This document shows positions 31,840 through 58,027 of a stretch of 64,000 nucleotides of DNA, piece by piece. The notes under the pieces were generated by a model that was not told where the DNA came from, did not search any database, and saw nothing but the letters and a program-made list of their open reading frames with translations. This DNA comes from an uncultured Alphaproteobacteria bacterium. GTDB lineage: Bacteria; Pseudomonadota; Alphaproteobacteria; Methylaequorales; Methylaequoraceae. The stretch is from the NCBI GenBank assembly GCA_902537615.1, contig CACBBU010000002.1, forward strand, positions 75,334 to 139,333. The letters are read 5' to 3'. Within the stretch, counting starts at the first letter, position 1; every line of letters starts with the position of its first letter. A program made the position numbers and the translations under genes.

Positions 31840-32466
31840 ATGGGGAATTTAATAGATAAACTTAAAAAAGAAAAGCCAGCCTTTGTTGCTGAATTTGATG
31901 ATTTTGTTCAAAAAATTAGACTTGAAAATAATGATGAATTAGTTAATTTACATTCAACGATAAGTTCACTCAGAGATCAATTAGAAAATCAGCAATTTCT
32001 TAAGAATAAAGAAATTCAAGATGCAATCCTTCAAACAGCAGATGAAATTAAACAACTTCAATTAACAATTACCGAACAAAGAAATCAGTTAGATAAACTT
32101 AAGTTTGAAAAAAAAGAAGCAATTCAAAGAGAAATTCAGTTATCTACCGATGAAATTAAACAATTAAAAAAATCTTGTGTAGTATTGAGAGATGAACTTG
32201 AAAATTTAAAGTTTGATAAACAGGAATCAGTTCAAAAAGCTATTTTGGAATCAAGTCAAGAAATTAAAGAATTAAAATTATCTATTTCAGATTTAAGAAA
32301 TGAACTTGAAAGTCTGAAATTTGAAAAAAAAGAAGCTGTTCAAAATGCTGTACTTCAATCGAATAATGAGATTCAACAACTTAAATCCTCAAGTCAAAAA
32401 TTAAGAGAGGAAATAGAAAAAATAATAAAAAATTATGAAAATAAGCATAAAAAAGGTGATAAATGA
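31840..32466 (+). CDS. Coiled-coil protein with four 36-aa repeats
   Basis: KFEKKEAIQ...DEIKQL...LRDELENL unit repeated; ATGA overlap with the cyclase. Confidence 0.8.
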   Translation: MGNLIDKLKKEKPAFVAEFDDFVQKIRLENNDELVNLHSTISSLRDQLENQQFLKNKEIQDAILQTADEIKQLQLTITEQRNQLDKLKFEKKEAIQREIQLSTDEIKQLKKSCVVLRDELENLKFDKQESVQKAILESSQEIKELKLSISDLRNELESLKFEKKEAVQNAVLQSNNEIQQLKSSSQKLREEIEKIIKNYENKHKKGDK

Positions 32467-34775
32467 AAAATAATAAAAAACCTGAAGATATCAAAATTTT
32501 GCAGGCAGAAATTGATAGATCTAAATTATTATTAAATATTTCTAGAAAAATTGCCTCAATTAAAAATCTCTCAGAAATACTATGGACTATTGTAGAGTTT
32601 GTTACAACCAATGTTGACGCTGATAGAGGAACATTATTTTTAAATGATGAAGAAACCAATGAATTATATTCAAGAGTTGCTCAGGGAGATTTAACAAGAG
32701 AAATTAGAATTTTGAATACTGTTGGAATTGCAGGAGGTATTTTTCAATCTCAAGTTGGTGAAATTATTCATGATGTTTACTCAGATAAAAGGTTTAACAA
32801 AGATGTTGACCAGGAAACTGGTTATAAAACAAAAAATATGATTTGTTCGCCAGTAAGAACTGTCAATGGAAAAATAATCGGAGTAATTCAAGTCTTAAAC
32901 AAAAATAAAGGAAGGTTTACTAAAGATAATTTAGAATTTGTAAATTCAGTTGCTACGCAAGCGGCTGTTTCAATACAAAATGCTCAGAATAATGAATTTT
33001 TTGAAAAAAAACGAGCTCAGGAAATGGAGTTCATAAGTATTGTTTCAGATGTAACTGCTGAAATTGATTTAAGTGCACTTTTGAAAAGAGTAATGGAAGA
33101 AGCGACGAGAATGCTTAATGCTGATAGAGCTACATTATTCTTGAATGATGAAAAAACTAATGAACTTTTTTCAAGAGTAGCTATGGGGGAAGGTATGGGA
33201 GAAATAAGGTTACCCAACACAGCAGGTATTGCTGGAAGTGTTTTTACTTCTGGTAAAACCATGAATATACCTTACGCTTATGCTGATTTGAGGTTTAATC
33301 CAGCATTTGATAAACAAACTGGATATTTTACCAGATCAATTTTATGCGTACCTGTAGTTAATAAAAACGGAAAAGTTATAGGTTGCACTCAAGTATTAAA
33401 TAAAAAAGGTGGTAAATTTACTGAAGAGGATGAATCAAGATTAAAAGCTTTCACTCAACAAGTTGCAATTGCTCTTGAAAACGCAAAATTATTTGATGAT
33501 GTGTCAAAATCAAGAAAATATAATGAAAGCATGCTTTCTAGCATGTCAAATGGTGTTATAACAATTGATGGTGACGGAAAAATTGTAACATGTAATAAAT
33601 CTGGTCTTAAAATTTTTAAAGTAAATGATAAAAACTTGATTGGATTAGATTCAAATAAGTTTTTTATAGATGAAAATAAATGGATTGAAGAAAAAATTAA
33701 TTTAGTTAGAGATTCTAAAGAACCAGAACTGATTATGGATGCTGAAATAGATGTTTTAAATCACGAAACCGAAAAAAATGAAATTATTTCAGTTAACCTA
33801 ACGATCTTACCTTTAATAAATGAAGACAGTGATGGAAGAACCGATGAAAAGGAGAGTTTTCTAGGTATTTTATTAATGATTGAAGATATTTCCTCTGAAA
33901 AGAGAATGAAGTCTACAATGTCAAGGTACATGGATCCTGGTATTGCAGATCAATTACTTGAAGATGGTGCTGACATAATGGGGGGTCTTGACACAACCGC
34001 AACACTCCTATTTTCTGATTTAAGAAGTTTTACGAATATTACTGAGTCTTTGGGTGCCCAAGGTACAGTTAAACTTTTAAATGAATATTTTGAAATTATG
34101 GTTGAGTGTATATCTGAACAAGGAGGTATGCTTGATAAATTTATTGGAGACGCAATCATGGCAGCTTTTGGATTACCTATTTCTCATGAAGATGATGAGG
34201 ATAGGGGTGTTAAGGCTGGTATCAATATGATTAAAAGACTTTGGGATTGGAACGATCAGAGAGAAAAAGATGGAAAACCTCCACTAGACATGGGACTGGG
34301 ACTTAATACTGATAAAATTGTAGCTGGAAATATTGGTTCACAAAAAAGAATGGATTACACTATGATTGGTGATGGGGTTAACCTTGCGGCAAGGCTTGAA
34401 AGTGCATGCAAACAATATAATGCTAGGATTTTAATTAGTGATTTTACTTTTAAAAAACTCAAAGGAACTTACAGAATTAGGTATATTGATGATGTTGTTG
34501 TTAAAGGTAAGACCGAACCGGTTGGAGTTCATGAGGTATTAGATTATCATAACGAAAAAACCTTTCCTAATCTTATGGACGTGGTTAATCATTTTAATGA
34601 AGGAAGGAAAAAATACATCTCTGGTGATTTTGATCAAGCTGTAACCTCGTTTAAAGAATGCTTAAAGATTAACTCTGAGGACAAATTATCAGAAACTTAC
34701 ATTAACAGATGTAATCAACTCATTTCTGAAAAACCAAAAAATTGGGATGGAGTTTGGGTTATGAAAAGTAAATGA
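32463..34775 (+). CDS. Soluble class III adenylate cyclase, GAF-GAF-PAS-CYC-TPR-like
   Basis: Two GAF domains (ADRxTLFL, NK..F..D), FSDLRSFT, DKFIGDAIMA, DYTMIGDGVNLAARLES, C-terminal WDG motif. Confidence 0.92.
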   Translation: MKNNKKPEDIKILQAEIDRSKLLLNISRKIASIKNLSEILWTIVEFVTTNVDADRGTLFLNDEETNELYSRVAQGDLTREIRILNTVGIAGGIFQSQVGEIIHDVYSDKRFNKDVDQETGYKTKNMICSPVRTVNGKIIGVIQVLNKNKGRFTKDNLEFVNSVATQAAVSIQNAQNNEFFEKKRAQEMEFISIVSDVTAEIDLSALLKRVMEEATRMLNADRATLFLNDEKTNELFSRVAMGEGMGEIRLPNTAGIAGSVFTSGKTMNIPYAYADLRFNPAFDKQTGYFTRSILCVPVVNKNGKVIGCTQVLNKKGGKFTEEDESRLKAFTQQVAIALENAKLFDDVSKSRKYNESMLSSMSNGVITIDGDGKIVTCNKSGLKIFKVNDKNLIGLDSNKFFIDENKWIEEKINLVRDSKEPELIMDAEIDVLNHETEKNEIISVNLTILPLINEDSDGRTDEKESFLGILLMIEDISSEKRMKSTMSRYMDPGIADQLLEDGADIMGGLDTTATLLFSDLRSFTNITESLGAQGTVKLLNEYFEIMVECISEQGGMLDKFIGDAIMAAFGLPISHEDDEDRGVKAGINMIKRLWDWNDQREKDGKPPLDMGLGLNTDKIVAGNIGSQKRMDYTMIGDGVNLAARLESACKQYNARILISDFTFKKLKGTYRIRYIDDVVVKGKTEPVGVHEVLDYHNEKTFPNLMDVVNHFNEGRKKYISGDFDQAVTSFKECLKINSEDKLSETYINRCNQLISEKPKNWDGVWVMKSK

Positions 34776-36896: not shown

Positions 36897-36905
36897 TTTT
36901 GTTTA

Positions 36906-43274: not shown

Positions 43275-44861
43275 ATGTCTTACTGGCTTCAAGTACTTAA
43301 AAATAGTGGATCACTAGGAACAATTATTATTTTATCAGTCTTGATAACTATAATGGGTTTATTAAGCCCTATTTTTATAATTCATATTTTTAATAGATAT
43401 ATATCTTTTGGCCTTGAAGGTACTTTAATTTTTCTAATGTTAGGTGCATTATCAGTAGCTATATTTGAATTTTTTTTTCGTAATTTACGAAACAAAGTCT
43501 TTTCAAAGATAATAATAAATCCGATACAAGTTACAAAGCTTGATTTTATAAAGAATTATTTTACTAGAATTGGTAAGAATAGAAAAAAATTATCTGAATC
43601 TATTGATATCAATAATCAATTTTATCAATATTTATCACCCATAAATCAATCAAATATGTTTGATTCATTATTTGTTATAGTAATAATATTATTTCTTTTT
43701 TTTCTAAGTAAGATTTTAACAGGAATTTTTCTAACAATAATTACTCTATACTTGTTAATACAAAAAAAAATTGATGATAACAAAAAAAGTTTTATTAACA
43801 AAAATAAATTCAGTTCTTATGATAATCAAATAATAAAAGAATTAAGTTTAAATAGTGAATTTCTTGATACACAGGATTCGTTAAAATATGTTGGTTATAA
43901 TTTAAAGCAATATTTAGAAAAAAAATTATTCAATGACTCAAGTTTATCAACTTTTGATAATTATCAATTTTCGTCTAATCATCTTCTTATCCTTTTTTCG
44001 TCAATTGTTATAATTGGTTTTGGGGCAGTACTAGTTGTTAACGGGCAACTTTCTGTTGGAAGCTTAATTGGTTTTAATATTTTTTCTTCAAGAGCGTTAG
44101 TCTTAGCCTCTGGTGCTCAGAGATCGTATTTAAATTTGACTGGTTTAAATACTCTTATAGTATCCTCTTATGAAAAGTTAAAAGGTTCAAAAGAGAGATA
44201 TCAGGGAATGCAATTAAATACTATTACTGGTAATATAAAATTAAATAAAATTGACTTTTCTTATGATAAAAGTGACTTTTTATTTAGAAATTTGAATATT
44301 TCAATTAACCCAGGGCAATTGTTTTGTATCTCTGGTTCAAATGGTAGTGGAAAAACTACTCTTTCAAAAATACTGATGGGAATTTTAGAACCAAGTGCTG
44401 GTGAAGTTCTTGTTGATGGGACTAATTTAAATAAATTATCACTAAAGTGGTGGAAGAAACAAGTAGCCTATATTCCTCAAAACCCAAATATTTTGAATTC
44501 TTCAATTATGGATAATATCCTGCTAGGCAATGATAAATTAAATGAACAAGAAGTGAGTAGATTACTCCAAACTGTGGGTTTGGATCAAAAATTAAAAAAA
44601 ACATCCCTAACTATTCTTGAACCGATTGAGGATAATCTTTCAAAAGGTGTAAAAAAAAAAATTCATTATGCTAGAGCTTTAGCTCAAAATTCTAAAGTTT
44701 TTATAATAGATGATCCATTTGGTTATTTAGATAACCAAGGGATCCAAATAGTACAAAAAATAATTGAATCTTTTAAAAGAGCAAATAAAACAGTAATTTT
44801 ATTCTCAGACAACGATATTTTTTCTAATGTTATAGATGAGAACATTAGGATAGGAGATTAA
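43275..44861 (+). CDS. T1SS ABC transporter (TMD-NBD, no C39 domain; degenerate NBD)
   Basis: HIFNRYIS TMD, LIGFNIFSSR, GSNGSGKTT, YIPQ, LSKGV, IIDDP. Confidence 0.85.
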   Translation: MSYWLQVLKNSGSLGTIIILSVLITIMGLLSPIFIIHIFNRYISFGLEGTLIFLMLGALSVAIFEFFFRNLRNKVFSKIIINPIQVTKLDFIKNYFTRIGKNRKKLSESIDINNQFYQYLSPINQSNMFDSLFVIVIILFLFFLSKILTGIFLTIITLYLLIQKKIDDNKKSFINKNKFSSYDNQIIKELSLNSEFLDTQDSLKYVGYNLKQYLEKKLFNDSSLSTFDNYQFSSNHLLILFSSIVIIGFGAVLVVNGQLSVGSLIGFNIFSSRALVLASGAQRSYLNLTGLNTLIVSSYEKLKGSKERYQGMQLNTITGNIKLNKIDFSYDKSDFLFRNLNISINPGQLFCISGSNGSGKTTLSKILMGILEPSAGEVLVDGTNLNKLSLKWWKKQVAYIPQNPNILNSSIMDNILLGNDKLNEQEVSRLLQTVGLDQKLKKTSLTILEPIEDNLSKGVKKKIHYARALAQNSKVFIIDDPFGYLDNQGIQIVQKIIESFKRANKTVILFSDNDIFSNVIDENIRIGD

Positions 44862-46144: not shown

Positions 46145-46441
46145 TTACATTTTTATCTTAGCTATTGGATCATATTTGTATATTACCCCATTGTTTTCAC
46201 TTGATAATTTGAGGAATTTATACAGTTCATCAAAAATAGCATTACTTTTTCTTCCTTTTACTATAATAGTTAGTATTTCTGCTTCACTAGCACTTCCAAA
46301 CTGTTGGATATCAAAAAGATCAGAAGATCGTCCATTAGCATAACCTATGGAAATTACATCAATATTTTTTGAAAATCTCTCAACTACTGAGTGACCAAGT
46401 CCTTTTTTTATTAAACCGCCAATTTCAATAAAGTTAGTCAT
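46145..46441 (-). CDS. Degenerate P-II-like protein
   Basis: EILTIIV..SNAIFDELY..GVIY aligns with EIIRIIV..SNRVFESMY..GIMW of the neighbouring P-II-like protein. Confidence 0.6.
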   Translation of the reverse strand: MTNFIEIGGLIKKGLGHSVVERFSKNIDVISIGYANGRSSDLFDIQQFGSASEAEILTIIVKGRKSNAIFDELYKFLKLSSENNGVIYKYDPIAKIKM

Positions 46442-46803
46442 TATTTGGATGCCCCAGCTCTTTTTAGGACATCTTTAGGAATATGGGTTGCTACTCTATC
46501 CAACTTTACCATCCACATAATACCTTTGCCTGGCGTATCAAGATCTCCAGCTAAATACATTGATTCAAAAACTCTATTAGACTGTTCTTTTGAAACAATA
46601 ATCCTTATTATTTCTTTTTGCTCATCAATGGTTACGCCTAACAACCCCATTCTGTCTCTCACGCCTGTTCCTCGAGCATAATTTATTGTAGCACCTTGTG
46701 CTCCAACACTAGTCGCAGCATCAATTATTTTATCTGCAATTCCACTTTCAACCACACACGTGATTAAGAAGACGTCGGTAAGATATGTAATTTCTCTAGC
46801 CAT
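46441..46803 (-). CDS. P-II-like (GlnB-fold) signal transduction protein
   Basis: LITCVV, GAQGATINYARGTG, KEIIRIIV, PGKGIMW; short T-loop without the Tyr51 equivalent. Confidence 0.85.
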   Translation of the reverse strand: MAREITYLTDVFLITCVVESGIADKIIDAATSVGAQGATINYARGTGVRDRMGLLGVTIDEQKEIIRIIVSKEQSNRVFESMYLAGDLDTPGKGIMWMVKLDRVATHIPKDVLKRAGASK

Positions 46804-46805
46804 AA

Positions 46806-48518
46806 TTAATTATCCTTTTGTTTTTTTTGTTGAAATTGAATAAAAAGGCCCATTAATAATACTGCTAATATTGGGCAGATACTAGCCATTGATAGTATAC
46901 CAAATCCCTCTGTAGCTGAAACGGCATTTCCAAGTCCGAGACCCATTGCAAGAACTAACGGAACGGTAACAGGGCCAGTTGTAACCCCAGCACTATCCCA
47001 AGCAACGTTAACAAATTCTTCGGTAGAAAAATAAGTTAATACAACTGCTAACAGATATAAAGGAATTAAAACAGTTGCTAAATCAAAACCGAAGACAATT
47101 TTACCAACCCCCAATGCTATTCCAAAAGCAACTCCTCCAGCAACACTGTACATAAGCATTGACTTTTTAAAAGCACCATTCGTCAAGTCTTGTACTGTAA
47201 GACCCAATGCATTAAGAGCTGGCTCTGCCAATGTCGCACCGAAACCCAGTAACCAAGCAAAGAGGATAACTATAGATAAACCCAAAATTTCACTATATAT
47301 AGGAGATACTTCGCTTATAGATACTTCCATAAATGCAGCAGGAAGAGTAGATCCTGCTTGACCGCCAATGGCACCAAGCCCATAAGTTAACCCTACATTA
47401 AAAACACACATTCCGATGATTGATAAAGCAAGACCATATGTTGTTACTAGGTTATTTGGAAGTCTAGATTTAAGGATAATAAAAAGAACTATCATTAAAT
47501 ATATTACTAAAGGTAGTATTGCTTGAACGCCTCCTCTTATCTCAGCATAAGGAGTTTGCGTCCATATAGAAGTATCAGCGTTACCAACAGAATTACTTGC
47601 GATTGAAGCCATTGCTATAATTTCATCAACACTTGTAGTTTGTGAAATATAGATAGCTAAAATTAAGACAGCAATAATGGGAAATAGAGAGGCCATTGTT
47701 ACCACTCCAAAACCAGAAAGTGAAGAGTCACCTTTTCCAGCAGACGCAGCTATACCAATACCTAGGGATAAAACAAGTGGAACAGTAACTGGCCCAGTTG
47801 TAACCGCTCCGCAATCCCATGCTAAACCAAGAATTGTTCTAAGATCAGGATTTGTCCATGCATAGATAGTCAAAGCAATTGTTGGAGCTAAAGCTAAATA
47901 AATTAAAGGCTTTAGTGACCATCCCCTAACAAATCTAATTGTACCAATAACAGCTGCTATGCCAACACCTGCTCCTACCATAACTACAAGAGTTTCGCTT
48001 CTGTTATTTAAAATTTCATACAAATATGGAGCCTCTTGAGGGTTTACGGATGCACCAAAAGCTTTTAGTGCACCAATCGCTGGCTCAGCATATGTAACAC
48101 CTACACCAAGAATGGCAATGATTATTAAAACAACGAATAAAGAGGCTTTTTTTGGTAGTGTATCTCCTATTATCGTTCCAAAGGGCATGAGACCAGTTTT
48201 TAATCCTTCCATAAAAATAGCTAAACCGATAATAACAGCTACTAAACCAAGAGATATTGTTGAAGCCTCAGCTATAGGTTGCCTTAGAATCAGTAATTGA
48301 AATAAAAATAAATAAGCAGCTAACGGGACTACTGCTTTTACTTGTTCAAGAATTCTAACATAAGTATAAGGAGCTAAAAGGGATATGGCTTTTGCTGCTC
48401 CAACTTTAATTTTTTCGGGCTTTAAAATTTGACCTTTAATAGGTTTAGGAGTTAGGTTATTATAACTAATGTTCCTATGCTTAACTTCGGATTCATGCAA
48501 AAAATCAGAATATTTCAT
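46806..48518 (-). CDS. Fused double DUF1538 membrane protein (putative transporter)
   Basis: Two internal repeats: AEPAI/AEPAL and WDCGAVTTGPVTVP/WDSAGVTTGPVTVP. Confidence 0.85.
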   Translation of the reverse strand: MKYSDFLHESEVKHRNISYNNLTPKPIKGQILKPEKIKVGAAKAISLLAPYTYVRILEQVKAVVPLAAYLFLFQLLILRQPIAEASTISLGLVAVIIGLAIFMEGLKTGLMPFGTIIGDTLPKKASLFVVLIIIAILGVGVTYAEPAIGALKAFGASVNPQEAPYLYEILNNRSETLVVMVGAGVGIAAVIGTIRFVRGWSLKPLIYLALAPTIALTIYAWTNPDLRTILGLAWDCGAVTTGPVTVPLVLSLGIGIAASAGKGDSSLSGFGVVTMASLFPIIAVLILAIYISQTTSVDEIIAMASIASNSVGNADTSIWTQTPYAEIRGGVQAILPLVIYLMIVLFIILKSRLPNNLVTTYGLALSIIGMCVFNVGLTYGLGAIGGQAGSTLPAAFMEVSISEVSPIYSEILGLSIVILFAWLLGFGATLAEPALNALGLTVQDLTNGAFKKSMLMYSVAGGVAFGIALGVGKIVFGFDLATVLIPLYLLAVVLTYFSTEEFVNVAWDSAGVTTGPVTVPLVLAMGLGLGNAVSATEGFGILSMASICPILAVLLMGLFIQFQQKKQKDN

Positions 48519-48555: not shown

Positions 48556-49023
48556 TTATTCTACATGAGATGTTGATTTATCAAGTCTATAAAATATTTG
48601 CCTTGCTAATTTTGATATTAAATCATTTTCATTTCCAATTTTGGAGTTTAATTCTTCAAGAGAAAATGGTACTTTTTGAAATTCTGCCCTTTTTGATAAT
48701 TCTTCGCAAAGTTTTAGGATCATATTTTTTACAATATCTGATGCTGAATTAAGTATTAACTCTAAACCTTCTTTGTTTATTTCAATTAATTCAGTGGGTT
48801 TCACAGATTTAACAGTTGCACTTCTTTTTTGATTTAGTAAGAGCGCTAACTCTCCAAAGACCTCGCCATCACTCATATAACCAGCCTCGTTTTTATCAAC
48901 CTCTACAGAAAGTCTTCCAGAGACAATCATATAAGCTTTATTTCCTTCATCTCCCTGACTGAATAAAACCTCATCTTCAAGCATTAAAATCTTATTGGTT
49001 TGGCCATGGGTTATTTTTTTCAA
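48556..49023 (-). CDS. Stand-alone cyclic-nucleotide-binding domain protein (no HTH)
   Basis: LFSQGDEG, GEVFGELALLLNQKRSATV. Confidence 0.88.
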   Translation of the reverse strand: MKKITHGQTNKILMLEDEVLFSQGDEGNKAYMIVSGRLSVEVDKNEAGYMSDGEVFGELALLLNQKRSATVKSVKPTELIEINKEGLELILNSASDIVKNMILKLCEELSKRAEFQKVPFSLEELNSKIGNENDLISKLARQIFYRLDKSTSHVE

Positions 49024-49460
49024 TGAAAGATCCTTTGTGAAAGACGATAATGGAGTTGCAAAGCTAATGCACGTATTACATCAGGTGATTTTTTTACAAG
49101 TTCTTTAAGGTCTTTTTGAGTTATAGGTAGCTTGTGGTCAGTGTCCTTACCTAGTTCTTTTGACATTTGTTGAATAATTTTGTGTAATTCAATGTTACTT
49201 GATAAAAGAATTGCTTCAAGCGCATTTTTCTTTATTTCTATAATTTCTGTCGGGACAATCGCTTTTATACTAGCTTTTCTCTCCTCACCCAAAATAAGTG
49301 ATAACTCACCAAAAATTTCACCTGATTCCATTTTACCAACTTTTTTTCCATCAATTTCAACATTCAAAGCACCCGATATTATTAAGAAAGCAGTGCTTCC
49401 TTTGTCACCTTGTTTAAAAACATATTCGTCAGGTAATATTCTTTTCTTATTTAATGCCAT
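49020..49460 (-). CDS. Stand-alone cyclic-nucleotide-binding domain protein (no HTH)
   Basis: VFKQGDKG, GEIFGELSLILGEERKASI. Confidence 0.88.
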   Translation of the reverse strand: MALNKKRILPDEYVFKQGDKGSTAFLIISGALNVEIDGKKVGKMESGEIFGELSLILGEERKASIKAIVPTEIIEIKKNALEAILLSSNIELHKIIQQMSKELGKDTDHKLPITQKDLKELVKKSPDVIRALALQLHYRLSQRIFH

Positions 49461-49463
49461 AGT

Positions 49464-51827
49464 CTATTTACTTGTTGCAACGTAAACACCGTCCCAATCT
49501 TTTGGAGGAGGGGAGGTCTTAAATTCATCAATTCTTTGTTTCATTATTTCATAGTATTCATTCATTAAATTATTACAAAGATTTTTTGCCAAATCCATTT
49601 CATTTAAACACTTTTCCCATTCTTGTCTAAAGTAATTTTTTAGGATATTTTTATGCTTTTCTTCTAAAGTTTTAAACTCATTACTTTTTTTAAACTCTGA
49701 ATCACCAGCTAAAGTAAATATTGTTACAGCTTCTTTTTTTCCTTTAACAGCAATCATATCCAATTGTAATGTTGCATATAAATCTTTTACACTTTCGTTA
49801 GTTTCTGGACCAATTACTGTTTTTACACCATAGCTTTTTGATTGCCCCTCAAGTCTAGCAGCTAGATTAACAGAATCACCAAGAACTGAATAATCAAATC
49901 TCTGGTCAGATCCCATATTACCAACAACACACCCACCAGTGTTTAAACCAATACCAATCTTTAACTCTAAATATTTTTTATTTTCAGATTTCGCTTCCTT
50001 TTCTCTTTCAGCATTTAGATCCGCCATTACAGCATGCATTTTGAGAGTAGCATCACAGGCCATTTTTTCATGACCATCAACATCAATTGGAGCATTCCAA
50101 AAAGCCATAATACAATCTCCCATATATTTATCAATCGTGCCATTAACGTTGATAATTTCATTAGTAAGAGGTGTTAAGAATCTATTTATTAATTTAGTTA
50201 AACCTTGTGGATCCGATTTAAAAGATTCTGAAATAGTGGTAAATCCTCTTACATCACAAAATAAAAATGTCATTTTTTTAGTTTCCCCACCTAAAACTAA
50301 TTTATCAGGATCTTCTGCTAGTTGCTCTACCAATGCCGGAGAAAGATATTGTGAAAAAGCACCGCGAATCTGTTTTTTTTCGTTTGCATCTCTTAAATAG
50401 TTGGCAAAAGTGTTCCCAAAATATATTAAAAAAGTAGAAACACCTGCAAAAGTTGGGTCAAATAATGTTTTTTCTTCCAGAAAAAGCTTTAAACTTATAT
50501 AAAAAGCAGTGCTTATAACCGCGACCAATAAAGAAATATTTACAATCGGACCAAACCTAAGTGCTGATATTGTTATAAAGAACCCCAAAAGTATTGTAAA
50601 AATTCCTTCATAAAACTTCATATTTGTTCCAGATTTTAAGAAGGGAGAACCTGAAATTTTCACTTTATTTTTTTCATTTAGAGCCTCTTCTTCAGTCATT
50701 CCATTTTTAATTGCTTTCTTATACGCTATATCAGCATTCTTTGTGGAAGTATAAAATAATATAGCGGAGATTACTGTATCAATCAGATTAGCGTGTATTT
50801 CAACACCAGGCATTCTATCTTCAACAGGTGTAAACCTAATGTCTTTAAGACCTGTTGCTGATGTTCCAAGAATTCCTAACTTTCCCTGAAGTCTCTCTTT
50901 TCCAACTCTTCCTTTGATAATGTCTGCAGCACTGACATAATATCTTTTCTCTTTTTTAATAGAATCAGATTCACCATAATAAATCCAAACCCTTCCATTT
51001 TCATCTGTAGGAATTGCTGCATTACCAATTGCCTTTGTTTGAATTATAATTTCCTCAACACCGTTTATTCCAGTTCTTGTCGCAATACTGTTACCTTGAA
51101 ATGCAACTCTTATCATTTCTAGACCAAGTGTTGGTCTTACAGTTCCAGCAACATCTGAAATTAACGGTACACGTCTTATAATTCCATCTGGTTCTTCGGC
51201 AACAGACACAGTTCCTGCACCAGATGCTGCTTGCTCAAATTCAGTAACATTAGCCAATAATCCAGGATAGGTTATTAACCAATTTTTTGGATTCTTGTTT
51301 TTACCCAAAAAAACTTTAACAGAGGTATCTCTTATATCATCTCGTTCCGCATCACCAGTAACGTCAAGACCAGAGTGACCAATTACAGTCGGAAAGGTTT
51401 TCATAACATCTCTTGCAATAGACTCATTAGACGGAAGTTTCTTAAGAATATCAGCTACTTTTGGATTTCTTTTTTCTAGATCCCTTGCTATTAAAGTTGG
51501 GGATGTTCTGTCCTTTTCAGCAAATAATACATCTAGTCCAAGAACTAGCATACCAGATTCTTTGGACTTTTGAAAAAGCTCAGCTAAAACTGTTCTGGGC
51601 CAAGGCCATTGACCAATCTCTCGAAGTGACGCCTCATCAATATCAACTATTACAGAATAGGTTTGACCATCTGTAGATCTTGGGTATTTTTTTTGAAGTT
51701 GATCAAAATACTTTAGTCTCATTACTTCAACTACTTGCGGGTCAATAATCCTTACTCCACCTAAAATAATGGCCGCAATTATTGAAAGTAATGTAACTAT
51801 GAGTCTAAAACTTAATTTTAATTTCAT
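49464..51827 (-). CDS. CHASE2-domain membrane adenylate cyclase
   Basis: IVDIDEASL..IGQWPWPR, MPGVEIHAN, three TM helices, FCDVRGFT, DKYMGDCIMAFWNAP, GDSVNLAARLEG; ATG at 51827 lies 1 nt after the HlyD stop. Confidence 0.93.
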   Translation of the reverse strand: MKLKLSFRLIVTLLSIIAAIILGGVRIIDPQVVEVMRLKYFDQLQKKYPRSTDGQTYSVIVDIDEASLREIGQWPWPRTVLAELFQKSKESGMLVLGLDVLFAEKDRTSPTLIARDLEKRNPKVADILKKLPSNESIARDVMKTFPTVIGHSGLDVTGDAERDDIRDTSVKVFLGKNKNPKNWLITYPGLLANVTEFEQAASGAGTVSVAEEPDGIIRRVPLISDVAGTVRPTLGLEMIRVAFQGNSIATRTGINGVEEIIIQTKAIGNAAIPTDENGRVWIYYGESDSIKKEKRYYVSAADIIKGRVGKERLQGKLGILGTSATGLKDIRFTPVEDRMPGVEIHANLIDTVISAILFYTSTKNADIAYKKAIKNGMTEEEALNEKNKVKISGSPFLKSGTNMKFYEGIFTILLGFFITISALRFGPIVNISLLVAVISTAFYISLKLFLEEKTLFDPTFAGVSTFLIYFGNTFANYLRDANEKKQIRGAFSQYLSPALVEQLAEDPDKLVLGGETKKMTFLFCDVRGFTTISESFKSDPQGLTKLINRFLTPLTNEIINVNGTIDKYMGDCIMAFWNAPIDVDGHEKMACDATLKMHAVMADLNAEREKEAKSENKKYLELKIGIGLNTGGCVVGNMGSDQRFDYSVLGDSVNLAARLEGQSKSYGVKTVIGPETNESVKDLYATLQLDMIAVKGKKEAVTIFTLAGDSEFKKSNEFKTLEEKHKNILKNYFRQEWEKCLNEMDLAKNLCNNLMNEYYEIMKQRIDEFKTSPPPKDWDGVYVATSK

Positions 51828-51828
51828 T

Positions 51829-53562
51829 TTATGGCTCCGCAAAACTATTACCTAATGTCCTTATTAAAGGATAAATAAAATAGGTAATAAGTTTTCTTTT
51901 ACCAACTCTAAACTTTCCTGAAACCTTCATTCCTGGCATTAGATTAAATCCAGGCGGTGTGTCTTTCAGCTCATTTCCAGTGATTTGCGCTCTTGCTCTG
52001 TAAAAGTTACCGGAGTTTCCATCTACATCCTCATCTACTGTATCAGCAGAAACATAAATAAGTTTTCCTTTCAACTCTCCATGCTTTTGAGCTGGTAAGG
52101 CGTTTAATTGTATTTTAACTGATGTGTCAGGAATTAATTTACTTATATCAGATGGATCAACATCAAAAACAGTAAGTAACTCAACTCCTGTTGGAACAAG
52201 TGTTACTACACTTTTACCTTTGGTTATTACAGCGCCTGAATAAAGAGAATGAAGGTCTAGTACCATTCCGTCAGAAGGTGCCCTTACAATAACATCAGTT
52301 TGTCGCCTTTCCAGTTTCTTCAAGTCCTCTTGCATACTCATACGTTGATCCTCTAAGGAAACAAGTTCGTCATTTATTCCACCAAAAAACTGGCTTGTGT
52401 ATTCCTTTCTATTGGATTTAAGCTCACTAAGTTTATTACTTGTTTTGGTAAATTCCTTTTCTAAAGATAATCTTTTATTTTTTTCAGCTAAGACCTGTGA
52501 TTCAGCAACTAGATCTAAATCAAAAAGTTCTTTTTTTGAATTTTCAAGCTGCTTTTGAATATCCAACTGTTCCTTTACGTATTTTAAATCATCTTCTGTG
52601 GATGATATTTGTTGATCTAGAGATGCTTTTTTGGCTAAGTATTGATCTTTTTTGTCTTTAAAAATTTTATTTTGTCTTTCATCTTTAGGGTCGCTGACAC
52701 TAATACTCGTTCTTAGTAATGATTGCTTTTTTAATCTATCAATTTTTGAATTTATAACACTAAGCTGATAATTAAGTTTCATTCTATCAGCTTTCTGAAG
52801 GGTTGAATCAAAAGTGAGAAGAGCTTCTCCTTTTTTTATGCTTTGTCCTTTTTTAACATAGATATCTTTAACAACTGAATCAAAGTTTGATTGAACTTCA
52901 ACATTCGGAACAATTGTTGTTATTTTTCCTGATGCAGTAATTGTTGTATCTACTTCAGAGATAGATCCCCACAGAATTAAAAAAAAAACTAAAAAAGCAA
53001 AAGAGTATACGGAATATTTTACAGATTTAGGGACAGCTTTAGATTTTATTCTATCAATATCGTCATCAAATTCATCTAATAACTCATTCATCAATTCAGA
53101 ATTAACTTTTTTCTTCTTTTCTTCTTCGGATAATTCTTTTTTATCGTTATCTTCATCAACCTGGCTAGAATCTGAATCAGAACTGAAAGCATCAACTGAC
53201 AGTTTTTCATTAGCATTTCTTGCGTAGCTTGCTAATTGTTGCATCATATTAAAAGCTGTTTGAGGAGAGTTTTTTAGGTAACCTAATAATGCATCTTTAT
53301 CTATTTCTTTAACTACTGCCTCATCAACAGCTCTAGCCATTGCACTTCTAGGTTGTTTATCTATTAAGGCCATTTCACCAAAAAGAGCATTTTTTTCTAA
53401 AATTGAAAGTGTTACATATTCGTCACCATTAAACTTACAAACTTCAATTTTTCCTTTGACAACTTGGTAAGCATAATCACCTACCTCACCCTCTCTAAAT
53501 AGAACATCTCCAGCAGCTAAATTTCTTAATGCGGGTTGTGTAGTTTTTTTCTGTTTACTCAT
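51829..53562 (-). CDS. cNMP-binding domain fused to HlyD-family membrane fusion protein
   Basis: N-terminal LFREGEVG and FGEMALIDKQPRSA; acidic linker; TM helix; RAPSDGMV, LMPGMKVSG, GKRKLITYFIYP. Confidence 0.9.
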   Translation of the reverse strand: MSKQKKTTQPALRNLAAGDVLFREGEVGDYAYQVVKGKIEVCKFNGDEYVTLSILEKNALFGEMALIDKQPRSAMARAVDEAVVKEIDKDALLGYLKNSPQTAFNMMQQLASYARNANEKLSVDAFSSDSDSSQVDEDNDKKELSEEEKKKKVNSELMNELLDEFDDDIDRIKSKAVPKSVKYSVYSFAFLVFFLILWGSISEVDTTITASGKITTIVPNVEVQSNFDSVVKDIYVKKGQSIKKGEALLTFDSTLQKADRMKLNYQLSVINSKIDRLKKQSLLRTSISVSDPKDERQNKIFKDKKDQYLAKKASLDQQISSTEDDLKYVKEQLDIQKQLENSKKELFDLDLVAESQVLAEKNKRLSLEKEFTKTSNKLSELKSNRKEYTSQFFGGINDELVSLEDQRMSMQEDLKKLERRQTDVIVRAPSDGMVLDLHSLYSGAVITKGKSVVTLVPTGVELLTVFDVDPSDISKLIPDTSVKIQLNALPAQKHGELKGKLIYVSADTVDEDVDGNSGNFYRARAQITGNELKDTPPGFNLMPGMKVSGKFRVGKRKLITYFIYPLIRTLGNSFAEP

Positions 53563-53563
53563 T

Positions 53564-55729
53564 TTAAACAGCCTTTTTAAAAATTTTATGTGATGAAGAT
53601 TCGCCTAAAATAGAACTTTGTTTTTTATAAGTTTCACTAAAAAAGCCTGGTTCATTCTTCAAACTTTCAAACGAACCTTGCTGAGAAATTTTCCCATTAT
53701 CTAAAACAAAAATTTTATTACAAAGTCTTAAATGATAAAGCCTATTCGACACAATAACCACAGTTCTTCCTAAAGCAATATCAGGTAAGCCATCATAAAG
53801 TTTAATTTCACTATCTACATCAAATCCACTCATTGCATCATCAAGAATCAATATTCTTGGATTTCTAATTAACGCTCTTGCAATAGCAAATTTTTGTCTT
53901 AAGCCAGTAGAAATATTTGATGCATTTTCTTCTAAAAAAGTCTCATAAGCATCTGGAAATGATTCAATTTCTTCATGAGCAAAAACTTTTTTTGTAGCCC
54001 AAGTAATTCTATCCATTGAAGAGTTTGGCATTGGTCTAGAAATGTTTTCTCTAATTGTTCCAGGAAAGAAATAGCTTTCTGCACCTACTAAAGACACTTG
54101 AGATCTTATGTGACTTAAATCGAGTAATCTTAAGTCTATGTTATCAAGTCCCACAATACCAGATTGCGGTCTATATAAACCTTGAATTAATTTTGCCATT
54201 GTACTCTTACCGCAACCACTTTTCCCAGTGATTCCAACTATTTGTCTTGGATCAATATCTAAATCTATTTCTTTTAGAATTTTCGTTTCATCATCATAAC
54301 CAAACTCAACCTTTTTAAAATTAATTTGTCCCATTAACTGTGGTTTTTGACCTCTAACAGTTGTCTCAGAATTAGCGTCGACAATACCTGAAACGATTTG
54401 TAATGACTGAACTAATTTTCCTATTTCAGTTTTTAAGGTTACCAAATCAATGATTGGTCTAGAAACTCTACCTGCAAGCATATTAAAACCAACTAAAATA
54501 CCAGCCGAAAGACCTCCTGAAAAAACTAAATGTACACCAACAAAAATGACCATTGCTGTCATTAATTGATTGATAGTGGAGGTTATATTGTTTAAAACAG
54601 AAGATCTTTTTTGCATTTCATCAGAAGCAACTATATAATTAGCTTCTATATCCCTCCATTGGTCTTTTAGGCCTGGTTCCAATGCTAAACCCTTAACATT
54701 TTCAATTCCATTAACACAAACTGAAATAAACTCTTGTCTTTGAGCGTCAGCTTTAGCGAGCCCACCCATTGCGTCTCTTTGTTTTTTTGAATAAAACATT
54801 GAAGCAAGCGCACCTAACAAACTAAAAAATAAAACAACCCCAAATAGAAGCGGACTATAAAAAAAAAGAATTGGAACGAAAACTAAGAGACTTATTGAAT
54901 CTAATCCTGTTGAGAGAATTTTTTGAGTTAATAATGTTTTAATTTGACTGATTTGTGAAGTAAATCTTCTAAAACTCAAAGATTCTCTGTGAAATCTTTG
55001 CATGGGTAAACTTACTAATTTTTCAAAAACTCTCACAGATAGTTTTGCTTCAATTTTTTGAGATAAAAAGTCAAGTAAATAAGACTTTAGGTACCCAAGG
55101 ATTCCATTGAAAATATAAGCAACTACAACACCTGAAGTTATTACATATAACGTAGAGTAAGCCTCATAGTTTACAACCTTATCTAAAACTAGCATCATAA
55201 AAACCGCAGGAATAACTGCAAAAATATTAAGAATTAATGCTACAATAACAACTTGGACAACAACTGATTTATTTCTAAATGATTCTCCAATTAACCACCC
55301 AATTTTAAGCTCACTTGTTTCTTCAAAAATCTTTAATTTAGCTTTCAATAGTACTACAGAACCATCCCAGCCTTTACGTAATTCCTTTAAAGATATTTGT
55401 TGAGGTTTTGGATTTGATATACCAGCGTCTAAACAAAGAATAGATTTTTCATCCTCATTCGTAATCGCTCGCAAGGCAATAATATATCTTCCATTTTTTA
55501 GTTTTAATATTTGCTGTTTTTTTGTTAGAAGCTTTAAGAGTTCATTTTCACTTATTTTTGCAGCTTTTGCTTTTAAGTCAAAAGACTTAGCTAGTTCACA
55601 CATTTCTTTTAGAGATAGTTCTCTATCATCTATTTTAAATCTTTCAGGAATATCATTTGGTCCGATATGAATACCCAATTGTCTAGCAACAAGAATTAAT
55701 GATTTTTGAGAACCACGTATAGCTTCCAT
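53564..55729 (-). CDS. HlyB-type T1SS ABC transporter with inactive C39-like domain (degenerate NBD)
   Basis: C39-like region lacks catalytic Cys/His (SQKSL, GRYII); LVLDKVV TMD; GKSGCGKST; ISTGL; ILDDA; SNRL. Confidence 0.9.
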   Translation of the reverse strand: MEAIRGSQKSLILVARQLGIHIGPNDIPERFKIDDRELSLKEMCELAKSFDLKAKAAKISENELLKLLTKKQQILKLKNGRYIIALRAITNEDEKSILCLDAGISNPKPQQISLKELRKGWDGSVVLLKAKLKIFEETSELKIGWLIGESFRNKSVVVQVVIVALILNIFAVIPAVFMMLVLDKVVNYEAYSTLYVITSGVVVAYIFNGILGYLKSYLLDFLSQKIEAKLSVRVFEKLVSLPMQRFHRESLSFRRFTSQISQIKTLLTQKILSTGLDSISLLVFVPILFFYSPLLFGVVLFFSLLGALASMFYSKKQRDAMGGLAKADAQRQEFISVCVNGIENVKGLALEPGLKDQWRDIEANYIVASDEMQKRSSVLNNITSTINQLMTAMVIFVGVHLVFSGGLSAGILVGFNMLAGRVSRPIIDLVTLKTEIGKLVQSLQIVSGIVDANSETTVRGQKPQLMGQINFKKVEFGYDDETKILKEIDLDIDPRQIVGITGKSGCGKSTMAKLIQGLYRPQSGIVGLDNIDLRLLDLSHIRSQVSLVGAESYFFPGTIRENISRPMPNSSMDRITWATKKVFAHEEIESFPDAYETFLEENASNISTGLRQKFAIARALIRNPRILILDDAMSGFDVDSEIKLYDGLPDIALGRTVVIVSNRLYHLRLCNKIFVLDNGKISQQGSFESLKNEPGFFSETYKKQSSILGESSSHKIFKKAV

Positions 55730-55765: not shown

Positions 55766-55801
55766 AAAAAAAACCCCCTGTAAATAATACAGAGGGTTTT
55801 T
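55766..55801 (-). terminator. Rho-independent terminator after the 252-aa gene
   Basis: On + reads AAAAACCC-C-CTGTA-AATAA-TACAG-A-GGGTTTTT; the T-run follows on the minus strand. Confidence 0.8.
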
Positions 55802-55836: not shown

Positions 55837-56595
55837 TTAGACTACATCGTCAGTTGGATCATCAGGTGGTGGAGGCGGAGCCATTCCGTCGCCATCCATA
55901 TCCGCTCCTGGAGGAGGTCCTTCGGGTCCTTCGGGTCCTGGTCCATGATGTGCACCTGCATCATCCATATGAGAGTGCATTCCTCCCATATCGTCGCCTG
56001 GTGGTCCCATTGGTCCATCTGGTCCTGGTCCCATATCCCCTGGAGGTGGTCCCATTGGTCCATCAGGTCCCATCATTGGATCGCCTGGAGGTGGTCCTCC
56101 TGGATCACCTGGAGGTGGTCCGCCTGCTGGTCCATCTGGTCCAAATAATGGATCTGGTCCACCTGGTCCCATATCCCCTGGAGGTGGTCCCATTGGTCCG
56201 TCTGGTCCTGGTCCCATATCTCCTTCAGGAGGTGGTCCCATTGGTCCATCAGGTCCTGGTCCCATATCCCCTGGAGGTGGTCCATCACCAAATGCGGCAT
56301 CAACACTTTCGCCTGCTGCTTCAAAAGCTTGCATGGCGTCCATACCACTGTCAATAGCTGTGTCAAAACCTTCTTGAGCGGCGCTAGCCATGGTATCAAC
56401 CATTTCTGGAGGAGCACCCATATCAGTCATAGCTGCACCTGCTGCTTCAATTGCTGCGGATGCTGCTGCTGATGGATCAGCTCCGCCTTCAATTGCTGCA
56501 GTGTATGCGTCCTCAGCTGCAGTTCCAGCGGCATCTTCCATGGCATCAATTTGATCTTCAGTCATGCCTTCGGGCATGCCCATTTCTTCGGCCAT
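55837..56595 (-). CDS. Highly acidic Ala-rich then Gly/Pro/Met/Asp-rich protein (252 aa), putative T1SS cargo
   Basis: SD AGAAGGA 7 nt before the ATG; own promoter and terminator; lies between TolC and ABC genes. Confidence 0.8.
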   Translation of the reverse strand: MAEEMGMPEGMTEDQIDAMEDAAGTAAEDAYTAAIEGGADPSAAASAAIEAAGAAMTDMGAPPEMVDTMASAAQEGFDTAIDSGMDAMQAFEAAGESVDAAFGDGPPPGDMGPGPDGPMGPPPEGDMGPGPDGPMGPPPGDMGPGGPDPLFGPDGPAGGPPPGDPGGPPPGDPMMGPDGPMGPPPGDMGPGPDGPMGPPGDDMGGMHSHMDDAGAHHGPGPEGPEGPPPGADMDGDGMAPPPPPDDPTDDVV

Positions 56596-56701: not shown

Positions 56702-58027
56702 CTATAGTTTTAAATATTGAAAATTCAGAAGACCACATTGATTTAGAAGTTCAAATGAAGATAAAATTAACTGAAATTGAGCATTAACTAAATTTGATTC
56801 TGATTGAGTAAGTTCTTTTTCGGCATCAAGAATGTTTAGAGTTGTACGTGTTCCTACACCCGCCTCTTTAGTTACTCCCTCTACAGCCATCAAATTTGAT
56901 TCTACTGATAATTTTAATGACCCAATACTTGATTTAGTACTTTCAATTTTTTTCCATGTTGATTGAATCTGAAACATTAAATCCAGCTTTTTAGATTCAA
57001 GAGATTTAAAAGTAGAAATTGCTGAATTTTTGGATTTTTCTAAATTATAAAAATTGTGTCCTTTATTAAAAATCGGTAATGAGACAGAGGCGGTAACTTC
57101 ATAACTATCCTTTCTTTCAAGAATTCTAGATGATTTAAGAGACTTGCCAACTGAACCACTAACAGAAAATTCAGGTGCAAAATTTAAACGACTTTTTTTT
57201 ATATCAAACTTAGAATTTTCGTGTACAAATTTAAGTTGAATAAAATCGGGGTTATTTTTTAAACCAATTTCAAGTGATTCTTTAAGAGAAGATGGTATTT
57301 TTGGTATATCACCAAACTTTGACCAATCCTTAGGGTTTGAGTTTGTTATAGTTTCCTCATTGGTATCAAACCAGTTAATTTTTGGCTCTCTTCCAACGAC
57401 AGTTTTAAAATCTGATATTGAAATATCTAAATTATTTTCGGATTCAATTCTCTTTGAGGTTGCTTCAGCTAAACGAGCTTTTGCTTGAAAAACATCAGTT
57501 TTTGTTACATCTCTGAACTCAAATCTTTTTTCAGTTGCTTCTAACTTTTTAATTAAGTTTTCCTCATTTTTTTTTGATACATCAAGTAAAAAATAATCCT
57601 TTAAAACTGTATAATAAGCTTTACTTGCTCTGAATAAAACAGACTGAGTAACAGATTGATCTTTGAGTTGAGAGATTTTAAGATTATTTCTTGATTGTTT
57701 GAGTGTAACCATTTTTTCATAACTCAATGGTTGTGTTAAATCTATATCAAAAGTTGTTGGGCTTAGAGTTGTATCACCGCGATTAGATGTATCAGGAAAA
57801 CTTCGGCTTATATTTCTTCCTTGTGAAGATGAAAACTCTAGAGAAGGGAGAAAATCAGTCTTTGAAATCTGGAGGTCTTTTTTCGCATTTTCAAGATCTT
57901 TTTTGCTTTTTTGAATATCTGGAAAAAAATTATAAGCATCTCTTAAAACATCGCCTAGTTCTTCGGCTTCAGAAAAAGTGGTAAAAAGCAATAGAAATAA
58001 AAGTAAAAGTTTATAACTGCCATTCAT
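56702..58027 (-). CDS. TolC-family type I secretion outer-membrane protein
   Basis: Signal peptide, FLPSLEF, TKTDVFQAKARL, GTRTTLNILDAE. Confidence 0.9.
   Translation of the reverse strand: MNGSYKLLLLFLLLFTTFSEAEELGDVLRDAYNFFPDIQKSKKDLENAKKDLQISKTDFLPSLEFSSSQGRNISRSFPDTSNRGDTTLSPTTFDIDLTQPLSYEKMVTLKQSRNNLKISQLKDQSVTQSVLFRASKAYYTVLKDYFLLDVSKKNEENLIKKLEATEKRFEFRDVTKTDVFQAKARLAEATSKRIESENNLDISISDFKTVVGREPKINWFDTNEETITNSNPKDWSKFGDIPKIPSSLKESLEIGLKNNPDFIQLKFVHENSKFDIKKSRLNFAPEFSVSGSVGKSLKSSRILERKDSYEVTASVSLPIFNKGHNFYNLEKSKNSAISTFKSLESKKLDLMFQIQSTWKKIESTKSSIGSLKLSVESNLMAVEGVTKEAGVGTRTTLNILDAEKELTQSESNLVNAQFQLILSSFELLNQCGLLNFQYLKL

Follow-up and report, generated by a model that had tools for sequence, protein, structure and literature searches.

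Accounts of type I secretion usually present it as transcriptionally regulated and substrate-triggered. In the E. coli haemolysin type I secretion system (T1SS; structures 7SGR, 8DCK and 5C21), the cargo is an RTX protein, the ATP-binding cassette (ABC) protein HlyB carries a non-proteolytic C39-like domain, and the adaptor HlyD has ~60 cytoplasmic residues, with no ligand-binding domain, before its membrane helix. Recruitment of the outer-membrane channel TolC requires this N-terminus, which contacts HlyB (bioRxiv 10.1101/2025.05.27.656419), in agreement with the part in TolC recruitment that the first-pass annotation of the DNA studied here had given it, and the N-terminus of such an adaptor is therefore a plausible control point. 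HlyB mutations that abolish hydrolysis have also been reported to block secretion (bioRxiv 10.1101/2025.05.27.656419). We analysed a 64,000-nucleotide stretch (the window; positions 75,334 to 139,333 of contig CACBBU010000002.1, assembly GCA_902537615.1) from an uncultured alphaproteobacterium of the order Methylaequorales, in which the gene of a HlyD-family adaptor begins with a cyclic nucleotide (cNMP)-binding domain of the CRP type and lies beside the gene of a predicted adenylate cyclase. Judged from the sequence, this adaptor, here called cNMP-HlyD, is a real and undescribed variant in which a second-messenger receptor is built into the T1SS adaptor, with a function that is predicted.

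Second-messenger control of a T1SS substrate is shared with the LapD/LapG system, where cyclic di-GMP controls the T1SS adhesin LapA post-translationally, via a stand-alone receptor in the inner membrane and a periplasmic protease that acts on the cargo; both the nucleotide and the placing of the receptor, which is not built into the machine, differ from the window locus. The association of cNMP domains with HlyD/ABC peptide export loci is likewise found in NHLP/NHLM bacteriocin export (TIGR03794, TIGR03896, TIGR03797), whose cNMP domains lie on separate proteins or on the ABC subunit, whereas that of the window is fused to the adaptor; cNMP-HlyD matched two of these models weakly and below their cut-offs (TIGR03794, 47.3 against 156.2 bits; TIGR03896, cyc_nuc_ocin, 31.3 against 161.05 bits). 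HetC of Nostoc PCC 7120 also has a cNMP-type sensor built into a subunit of a peptide/protein ABC exporter: it joins a cNMP domain, which is required in vivo, to a C39 peptidase and an ABC (PMC10986499), so that cNMP domains were, as first noted for this locus, already known on the ABC subunit. In HetC the sensor sits on the ABC, the C39 peptidase is active, no adaptor gene lies nearby and the nucleotide bound in vitro was guanosine tetraphosphate (ppGpp), whereas in the window the sensor sits on the adaptor, the ABC lacks the Cys and His, and Pfam found no PF00027 match on the ABC protein. The closest relatives of the sensor itself are Bd1971 (Bdellovibrio, cNMP domain plus EAL phosphodiesterase), Clr, GlxR and the CRP of Mycobacterium tuberculosis (Mtb), with 27–38% identity and template modelling (TM) scores of 0.67–0.75. 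Bd1971 sets a precedent, being a bacterial protein whose cNMP domain controls a fused effector other than a DNA-binding domain; the outputs of Bd1971 and the CRP family are an enzyme or a DNA-binding domain, whereas that of cNMP-HlyD is a trans-envelope transport adaptor. Our literature search found no description of a T1SS adaptor that carries a cNMP receptor, nor of any second-messenger receptor that is part of the machine itself, its sole match for HlyD with cNMP being irrelevant, and the accessible part of a 2021 Chem Rev review of type I secretion makes no mention of cyclic nucleotides.

The cNMP-HlyD protein combines the tested features of a HlyD-family T1SS adaptor, for which one-step protein secretion is the predicted function, with those of a cNMP-binding domain, for which binding of cyclic AMP (cAMP) or cyclic GMP (cGMP) is predicted. 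NCBIfam TIGR01843 (type_I_hlyD) matched residues 181–576 with 218.5 bits, passing the curated cut-off of 208.65; Pfam HlyD_3 matched residues 426–533, and the adaptor body retrieved EmrA, MacA, E. coli HlyD (5C21/5C22) and LipC (5NEN) in Foldseek searches (E 1e-10 to 1e-17). A single hydropathy peak (184–202) is preceded directly by five Lys/Arg and followed directly by Glu/Asp, and an N-in topology, with a cytoplasmic N-terminus, is predicted from these flanks. The full-length AlphaFold model (predicted local distance difference test, pLDDT, 80) places the membrane helix at 179–201 and a disordered stretch at 118–167 (pLDDT <50 at residues 118–145 and 161–167), and has a pLDDT of 82–95 over residues 181–560, where a 170-residue helical hairpin lies in a typical adaptor body. 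Residues 119–183 are rich in Asp, Glu, Ser and Lys with a net charge of -8, and the conserved juxtamembrane segment MNELLDEFDDDIDRIK aligned with an F-x-P-D...E...P motif directly before the membrane helix in distant fused homologues. The acidic linker, single membrane helix and membrane fusion protein body read from the letters in the first-pass annotation are all borne out. Compared with E. coli HlyD/HlyB/TolC, the N-in helix, the lipoyl/β-barrel/long α-hairpin body and the juxtamembrane cytoplasmic segment are shared, as are the C39-like domain of the ABC and the TolC-family channel, both encoded in the locus (Table 1); the 110-residue CRP-type receptor and acidic linker ahead of the helix are what sets cNMP-HlyD apart.

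Table 1. Positions in the window of the cNMP-HlyD adaptor, its parts and neighbouring features, with features on other loci (L numbers) in the last three rows.
Feature	Position	Strand	Basis or remark
cNMP-HlyD gene (P0001), 577 aa, ATG to TAA	51829..53562	minus	Open reading frame (ORF), Pfam, NCBIfam; AlphaFold mean pLDDT 80
cNMP-binding domain, residues 10-121	53200..53535	minus	Pfam PF00027; eight-stranded β-barrel, α-B and long α-C helix
Phosphate-binding cassette FGEMALIDKQPRSA, residues 61-74	53341..53382	minus	Alignment
Acidic low-complexity linker (residues 122-165) and conserved juxtamembrane segment MNELLDEFDDDIDRIK	53029..53199	minus	AlphaFold pLDDT, identity, alignment
Single transmembrane helix, residues ~179-202, predicted N-in	52957..53028	minus	Hydropathy and model
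Periplasmic adaptor body: lipoyl, β-barrel, α-helical hairpin (254-422)	51832..52956	minus	TIGR01843, Foldseek
Partner ABC: C39-like, transmembrane and nucleotide-binding domains	53564..55729	minus	Pfam; alignment with HlyB 7SGR
CHASE2 sensor and class III adenylate cyclase (predicted)	49464..51827	minus	Pfam; alignment with CyaB 3R5G
Two stand-alone cNMP-binding proteins (146, 155 aa)	48556..49460	minus	Pfam E ~1e-16 each; overlap preceding genes by 4 nt
DUF1538 (UmpAB-like) membrane protein, P-II-like protein, 98-aa protein	46145..48518	minus	Pfam/NCBIfam, synteny
Terminator-like 14-bp hairpin, G+C-containing, with T-run	55769..55801	minus	Separates acidic gene from ABC-adaptor-cyclase block
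252-aa acidic protein, candidate cargo	55837..56595	minus	Between TolC and ABC genes
TolC-family outer-membrane channel	56702..58027	minus	Pfam OEP x2, E 4.6e-48; TIGR01844 208.2, just below cut-off 225.15
GAF-GAF-PAS-cyclase (class III)	32463..34775	plus	Heads second T1SS cluster; Lys/Asp pair present
cNMP fusion with NDH-2-type pyridine-nucleotide oxidoreductase	L055:282-1892 (G000:C3)	plus	
cNMP fusion with membrane protein	L054:1010-2416 (G000:C18)	minus	
Distant acidic ORFs	L060:1526-2617, L062:694-2229, L072:1193-2527, L078:1141-2760		

The N-terminal domain has the sequence and fold of an intact CRP-type receptor. Pfam cNMP_binding (PF00027) matched residues 13–98 over model positions 2–88/89 (E 2.8e-19; 69.3 bits against a gathering threshold of 27.5), and the phosphate-binding cassette called canonical at the outset is present as FGEMALIDKQPRSA at residues 61–74. 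Alignment with the functional cNMP sites of PKG, PKA, CRP-family regulators and Bd1971 brought the Gly-Glu and Arg-Ser-Ala elements into register. The AlphaFold model of residues 1–125 (pLDDT 83; predicted TM score, pTM, 0.70) shows an eight-stranded barrel, a cassette helix and a long α-C helix, and its best fold matches were cAMP receptor proteins (T. thermophilus CAP, TM 0.75; GlxR with cAMP and Mtb CRP with cAMP, with a range of 0.72–0.75 for the three), followed by Sinorhizobium Clr with cAMP (38% identity) and Bd1971. Alignments of 21 sequences from at least 15 lineages, spanning 26–94% identity, left G18, F22, E24, G37, G62, E63, I67, R72, S73, A74, A76 and R115 of α-C invariant, and the cassette Gly, Glu and Arg were kept in 35 distant cluster representatives, mostly as FGEMALI...RSA, with R[STAN]A variants. 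The sensor was the best-conserved region in every comparison, with 79–99% identity within the order and 37–48% in distant lineages, where the periplasmic body showed 25–40%; the linker was the worst-conserved region, with 29–76% identity to relatives against 79–99% for the sensor. Ratios of nonsynonymous to synonymous substitution (dN/dS), which are rough since dS is saturated (>1.5), were 0.01–0.06 for the sensor (the lowest dN in the gene), ~0.05 for the remainder and 0.15–0.5 for the linker.

The same fused ORF recurs well beyond the window. The source order comprises 42 species of one family in 14 genera, with genomes of ~1.3–1.6 Mb and ~28% G+C, and the fused gene was found in 33 of its 42 genomes, in 12 of the 14 genera and in all nine high-quality genomes; 34 species-level genome loci carry it at 65–94% identity. 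More than 120 protein clusters with 82–95% identity and the same Pfam combination come from independent marine metagenomes, metagenome-assembled genomes and single-cell genomes, and among 1.84 billion cluster representatives ~40 further clusters aligned from about residue 10 to residue 577 at 26–40% identity. A metagenome scan with an 11-sequence alignment of distant fused proteins returned 80 loci, 22 of which carry the fusion, the other 58 being unrelated cNMP proteins. The first-pass annotation had proposed an architecture search for cNMP_binding with HlyD and had named absence from close relatives, or an assembly artefact, as what would count against it; with 33 of 42 genomes of the order carrying the fusion, neither applies. 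That the fusion is a product of assembly or gene calling, or a lineage-specific accident without function, has next to no probability, given that the single ORF recurs across all of these collections and that its dN/dS lies far below 1; as an artefact, the reading is refuted by the same fused ORF appearing in independent metagenomes, metagenome-assembled genomes and single-cell genomes. The architecture is rare elsewhere: of 401 genomes sampled evenly across the class, only three outside the order have it. In a tree of the HlyD body, 77 unfused adaptors form a well-supported clade that excludes most fused proteins, with an arbitrary root and with crude fused/unfused labels (at least six 'unfused' proteins are fragments or missed by the regular expression), and for both reasons we make no claim on the number of fusion origins. 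One copy of the fused gene (L033:8001-9694, genome G038), on a contig whose name ends in '_pilon', is broken by many stop codons and is either a pseudogene or the product of an error-rich assembly.

The fused gene stands, as first noted, between the genes of an ABC transporter and a CHASE2 cyclase, each at a distance of 1 nucleotide. The ABC stop and adaptor start (53564/53562) and the adaptor stop and cyclase ATG (51829/51827) both form the junction TAA-A-ATG; the second gap presupposes that translation of the cyclase begins with the ATG at 51827; the TTG further upstream at 51842, offered by the ORF finder, is probably not used. By this arrangement the ABC, adaptor and cyclase genes are predicted to be co-transcribed and translationally coupled. 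The order TolC, variable acidic gene, ABC, cNMP-HlyD, CHASE2 cyclase and one or two small cNMP proteins is constant in ~30 species. The catalytic domain of the cyclase aligned best with P. aeruginosa CyaB (3R5G; E 1.4e-32) and has all six adenylate-cyclase residues, that is both metal Asp, the adenine-specifying Lys/Asp pair and the Asn/Arg (FCDVRGF, DKYMGD, FDYSVLGDSVNLAARLE), and should therefore make cAMP. Two class III cyclases were found in the genome (79% complete), both within the window and each beside a T1SS cluster, the second being the GAF-GAF-PAS cyclase 15 kb from the first. Their C-terminal tails (PKNWDGVWVMKSK and PKDWDGVYVATSK) resemble each other. The stand-alone cNMP proteins next to the CHASE2 cyclase have the cassettes FGELSLILGEERKA and FGELALLLNQKRSA and are syntenic in relatives, some of which have one only. 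None of the nine cNMP domains of the same draft genome carries a CRP-type DNA-binding domain; the others examined are stand-alone or fused to NDH-2 or a membrane protein (a strict cassette regular expression matched none of the genome's other cNMP proteins, whose cassettes were detected by Pfam and alignment). A largely post-translational cAMP network would fit this absence of CRP-type DNA-binding domains.

Since a putative cAMP-receptor domain on the adaptor is joined by an enzyme predicted to be co-transcribed and to make cAMP, export is probably switched directly by the second messenger. In the mechanism that we propose, the short cytoplasmic N-terminus of the adaptor would be extended by a CRP-type receptor; the CHASE2 adenylate cyclase would sense a periplasmic or external cue and make cAMP, to which the GAF-GAF-PAS cyclase may add; cAMP would bind the cassette and reposition the long α-C helix; and via the juxtamembrane segment, whose counterpart in HlyD touches the ABC protein, the inner-membrane ABC-adaptor complex would change state, so that export of the adjacent acidic protein free of Lys and Arg would be turned on or off post-translationally, without a transcription factor. 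We consider it somewhat more probable than its alternatives together that cNMP-HlyD is a direct cAMP receptor in a T1SS-like ABC/adaptor/TolC machine whose ligand binding switches export of the acidic protein. The ligand cAMP, the regulation of export by its binding, the direction of the effect and the step controlled, which may be cargo engagement, TolC recruitment or channel opening, all belong to the predicted part of this model. The first-pass suggestion that cAMP from the adjacent cyclase gates translocon assembly remains plausible on these grounds; TolC recruitment specifically, as the controlled step, is a good deal less probable than the general model.

If the model is right, a sensor placed on the tail through which HlyD couples substrate recognition to TolC recruitment would give a direct experimental handle on that coupling step. 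The system belongs to the core gene set of an abundant, streamlined ocean lineage, and the draft genome, with two cyclases and no CRP-type regulator, suggests a cAMP circuit that would run from an envelope sensor (CHASE2) to protein export independently of transcription. Links between cAMP components and export also recur in other arrangements. A sister lineage (L075, L078) carries, beside TolC and a fused adaptor of 38–41% identity, a GAF cyclase that shares 66% identity with that of the window; a CHASE2 cyclase adjoins an unfused T1SS of the second-cluster type (L080:2-6272); and a separate small cNMP gene lies 3' of an unfused HlyD of that type at three loci (L079:1051-3511, L083:3-2328, L112:561-3038). 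These loci indicate that the link occurs in both fused and split forms.

The partner ABC protein departs from HlyB at the residues of ATP hydrolysis. A HlyB-like ABC gene lies directly upstream of the adaptor gene in every fused locus with upstream flank, and that of the window aligned with E. coli HlyB (7SGR) at E 7e-102, although its TIGR01846 score of 493.9 bits is below the cut-off of 725.55. Four catalytic elements of HlyB are missing from the partner ABC: Asp replaces the catalytic Glu of Walker B (DD for DE), Asn the His of the H-loop and Ala the Gln of the Q-loop, and ISTGL stands in place of LSGGQ. Its Walker A sequence (GKSGCGKST) is preserved. Pfam Peptidase_C39 covers residues 11–130, which aligned with the C39-like domain of HlyB, and catalytic residues are missing there, the His of HlyB 'GRHFIL' being Tyr ('GRYIIA') and the first 43 residues containing no Cys. 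The motif decay holds throughout the order, with a domain dN/dS of ~0.08–0.09 that indicates purifying selection (dS saturated). Decayed partners were found in the window and at L001-L034, L035, L045, L051-L053 and L060-L078, and in L052 (GSADCGSDL) and L078 (QDNTDTASS) the Walker A lysine is lost as well. After collapsing, 16 of 19 fused lineages had decayed ABC motifs, against 0 of 25 unfused controls (Fisher p 2e-9), the controls being HlyB-like ABC genes that adjoin a plain HlyD gene and come from 301 sampled genomes of the class. The adaptor tree groups the cNMP-HlyD of the window with representatives that have decayed partners and places those with canonical partners elsewhere; from this grouping, the decay was probably one loss followed by further decay rather than many independent events. 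A homodimer of the partner ABC should be a poor ATPase, judging by these residues. The ABC of the second T1SS cluster (43275-44861, plus strand) is likewise non-canonical, with an LSKGV signature, IIDD at Walker B and Asp at the H-loop position. At L039 (3954-5768), a fused system with a canonical ABC adjoins a gene for an HlyC-type acyltransferase and two small ORFs, which suggests that the cNMP adaptor of that locus serves a classical RTX-type system.

The best candidate for the export cargo, by sequence and position, is the 252-aa acidic protein encoded between the TolC and ABC genes, which contains no Lys or Arg and 20% Asp plus Glu, is rich in Gly, Pro and Met and ends in ...DDPTDDVV. The haemolysin cargo is an RTX protein, whereas this candidate is Lys/Arg-free, acidic and Gly/Pro-rich. 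Lys/Arg-free acidic ORFs occur directly upstream of the ABC gene in relatives within the order and in four distant fused lineages whose flanks reach far enough, with 0–0.3% Lys plus Arg, 15–26% Asp plus Glu and, in many cases, a C-terminus that is acidic and then hydrophobic (DDVV, DDIV, GEVV, DDVG). Together, the decayed ATPase motifs and the Lys/Arg-free candidate cargo raise the question of what powers export.

Several observations weigh against cNMP-HlyD as a cAMP-operated switch of a T1SS. The ABC lacks the residues for hydrolysis, and the machine may for that reason not be a conventional ATP-driven T1SS. The R-S-A cassette, as far as its residues predict, cannot tell cAMP from cGMP, and the cNMP domain of HetC bound ppGpp in vitro (PMC10986499). 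In the structural model, the 45-residue disordered and fast-evolving linker between sensor and membrane would be an odd allosteric lever. No cyclase was found within the flanks of the distant fused loci L035, L038, L039, L051, L052, L060, L066, L069 and L072; the local cyclase is accordingly a feature of the order and its sister lineage and not of the family, and the ligand at cyclase-free loci would need to be supplied by a global pool, or might be a different one. Some of these points would also be expected if the domain were a receptor for another ligand (cGMP, ppGpp or another small molecule) and the cyclase mainly served the stand-alone cNMP proteins and the DUF1538/P-II module. The ppGpp result for HetC and the missing cyclase at most distant fused loci speak for such a ligand, as does the crystallisation of Clr, at 38% the closest solved relative by identity, and of Bd1971 with cAMP and cGMP alike, but the cassette matches the canonical pattern in full (G, E, R, S/T, A) and is invariant over at least 15 lineages, both cyclases of the genome have the adenine-specifying Lys/Asp pair, and the cyclase starts 1 nucleotide past the adaptor stop in ~30 species; we consider this explanation unlikely. 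The disorder and poor conservation of the linker would be less awkward if the sensor did not gate export at all and were instead a scaffold, for CRP-like dimerisation or docking of cargo or small cNMP proteins, or a local cAMP buffer providing feedback to the cyclase. This is consistent with the CRP-like fold, whose long C-helix is the dimer interface in CRP, and with the invariant α-C R115, to which no role is assigned. It is distinctly unlikely, however, when set against the ligand-contacting Glu and Arg, whose invariance over 26–94% identity argues that ligand binding is under selection, and against the known bacterial fusions of cNMP domains (Bd1971, SthK), which are ligand-regulated.

The remaining alternatives concern what is moved and by what force. 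A co-transcribed cyclase and an atypical ABC protein could mean that the machine exports a cyclic nucleotide or other small molecule, captured by the cNMP domain at the cytoplasmic mouth of the ABC; this is very improbable, as the C39-like domain of the ABC is typical of protein-exporting T1SSs, a candidate protein cargo is conserved upstream, both within the order and in four lineages distant from it, and an ABC without hydrolysis motifs would make a poor active small-molecule pump. The loss of those motifs under strong purifying selection, together with cargo candidates that lack Lys and Arg and hold 15–26% Asp plus Glu, led us to consider that the subgroup with decayed partners may be a conduit that takes polyanionic proteins across the envelope under the gating of a second messenger, and not an ATP-driven T1SS. 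Here the inside-negative membrane potential could drive unfolded acidic chains outward as soon as the adaptor, with cAMP bound, clears their path, and ATP binding would be at most a latch. We regard this version as rather doubtful. The cAMP-receptor adaptor acting in a T1SS-like machine is the explanation that we prefer.

The remaining features of the window concern regulation and the neighbouring cluster. A promoter scan returned 45 sites against 44.5 expected from shuffles, and the terminator-like hairpin between the acidic gene and the ABC-adaptor-cyclase block alone stood out. The conserved gene order continues past the small cNMP genes with DUF1538, the P-II-like gene and the 98-aa gene, the block converging on the second T1SS cluster. 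Within that part of the window, G+C rises to 0.45 at 36001-40000, against ~0.28 elsewhere, in a region that coincides with the 1117-aa FecR + RTX protein of the second T1SS cluster.

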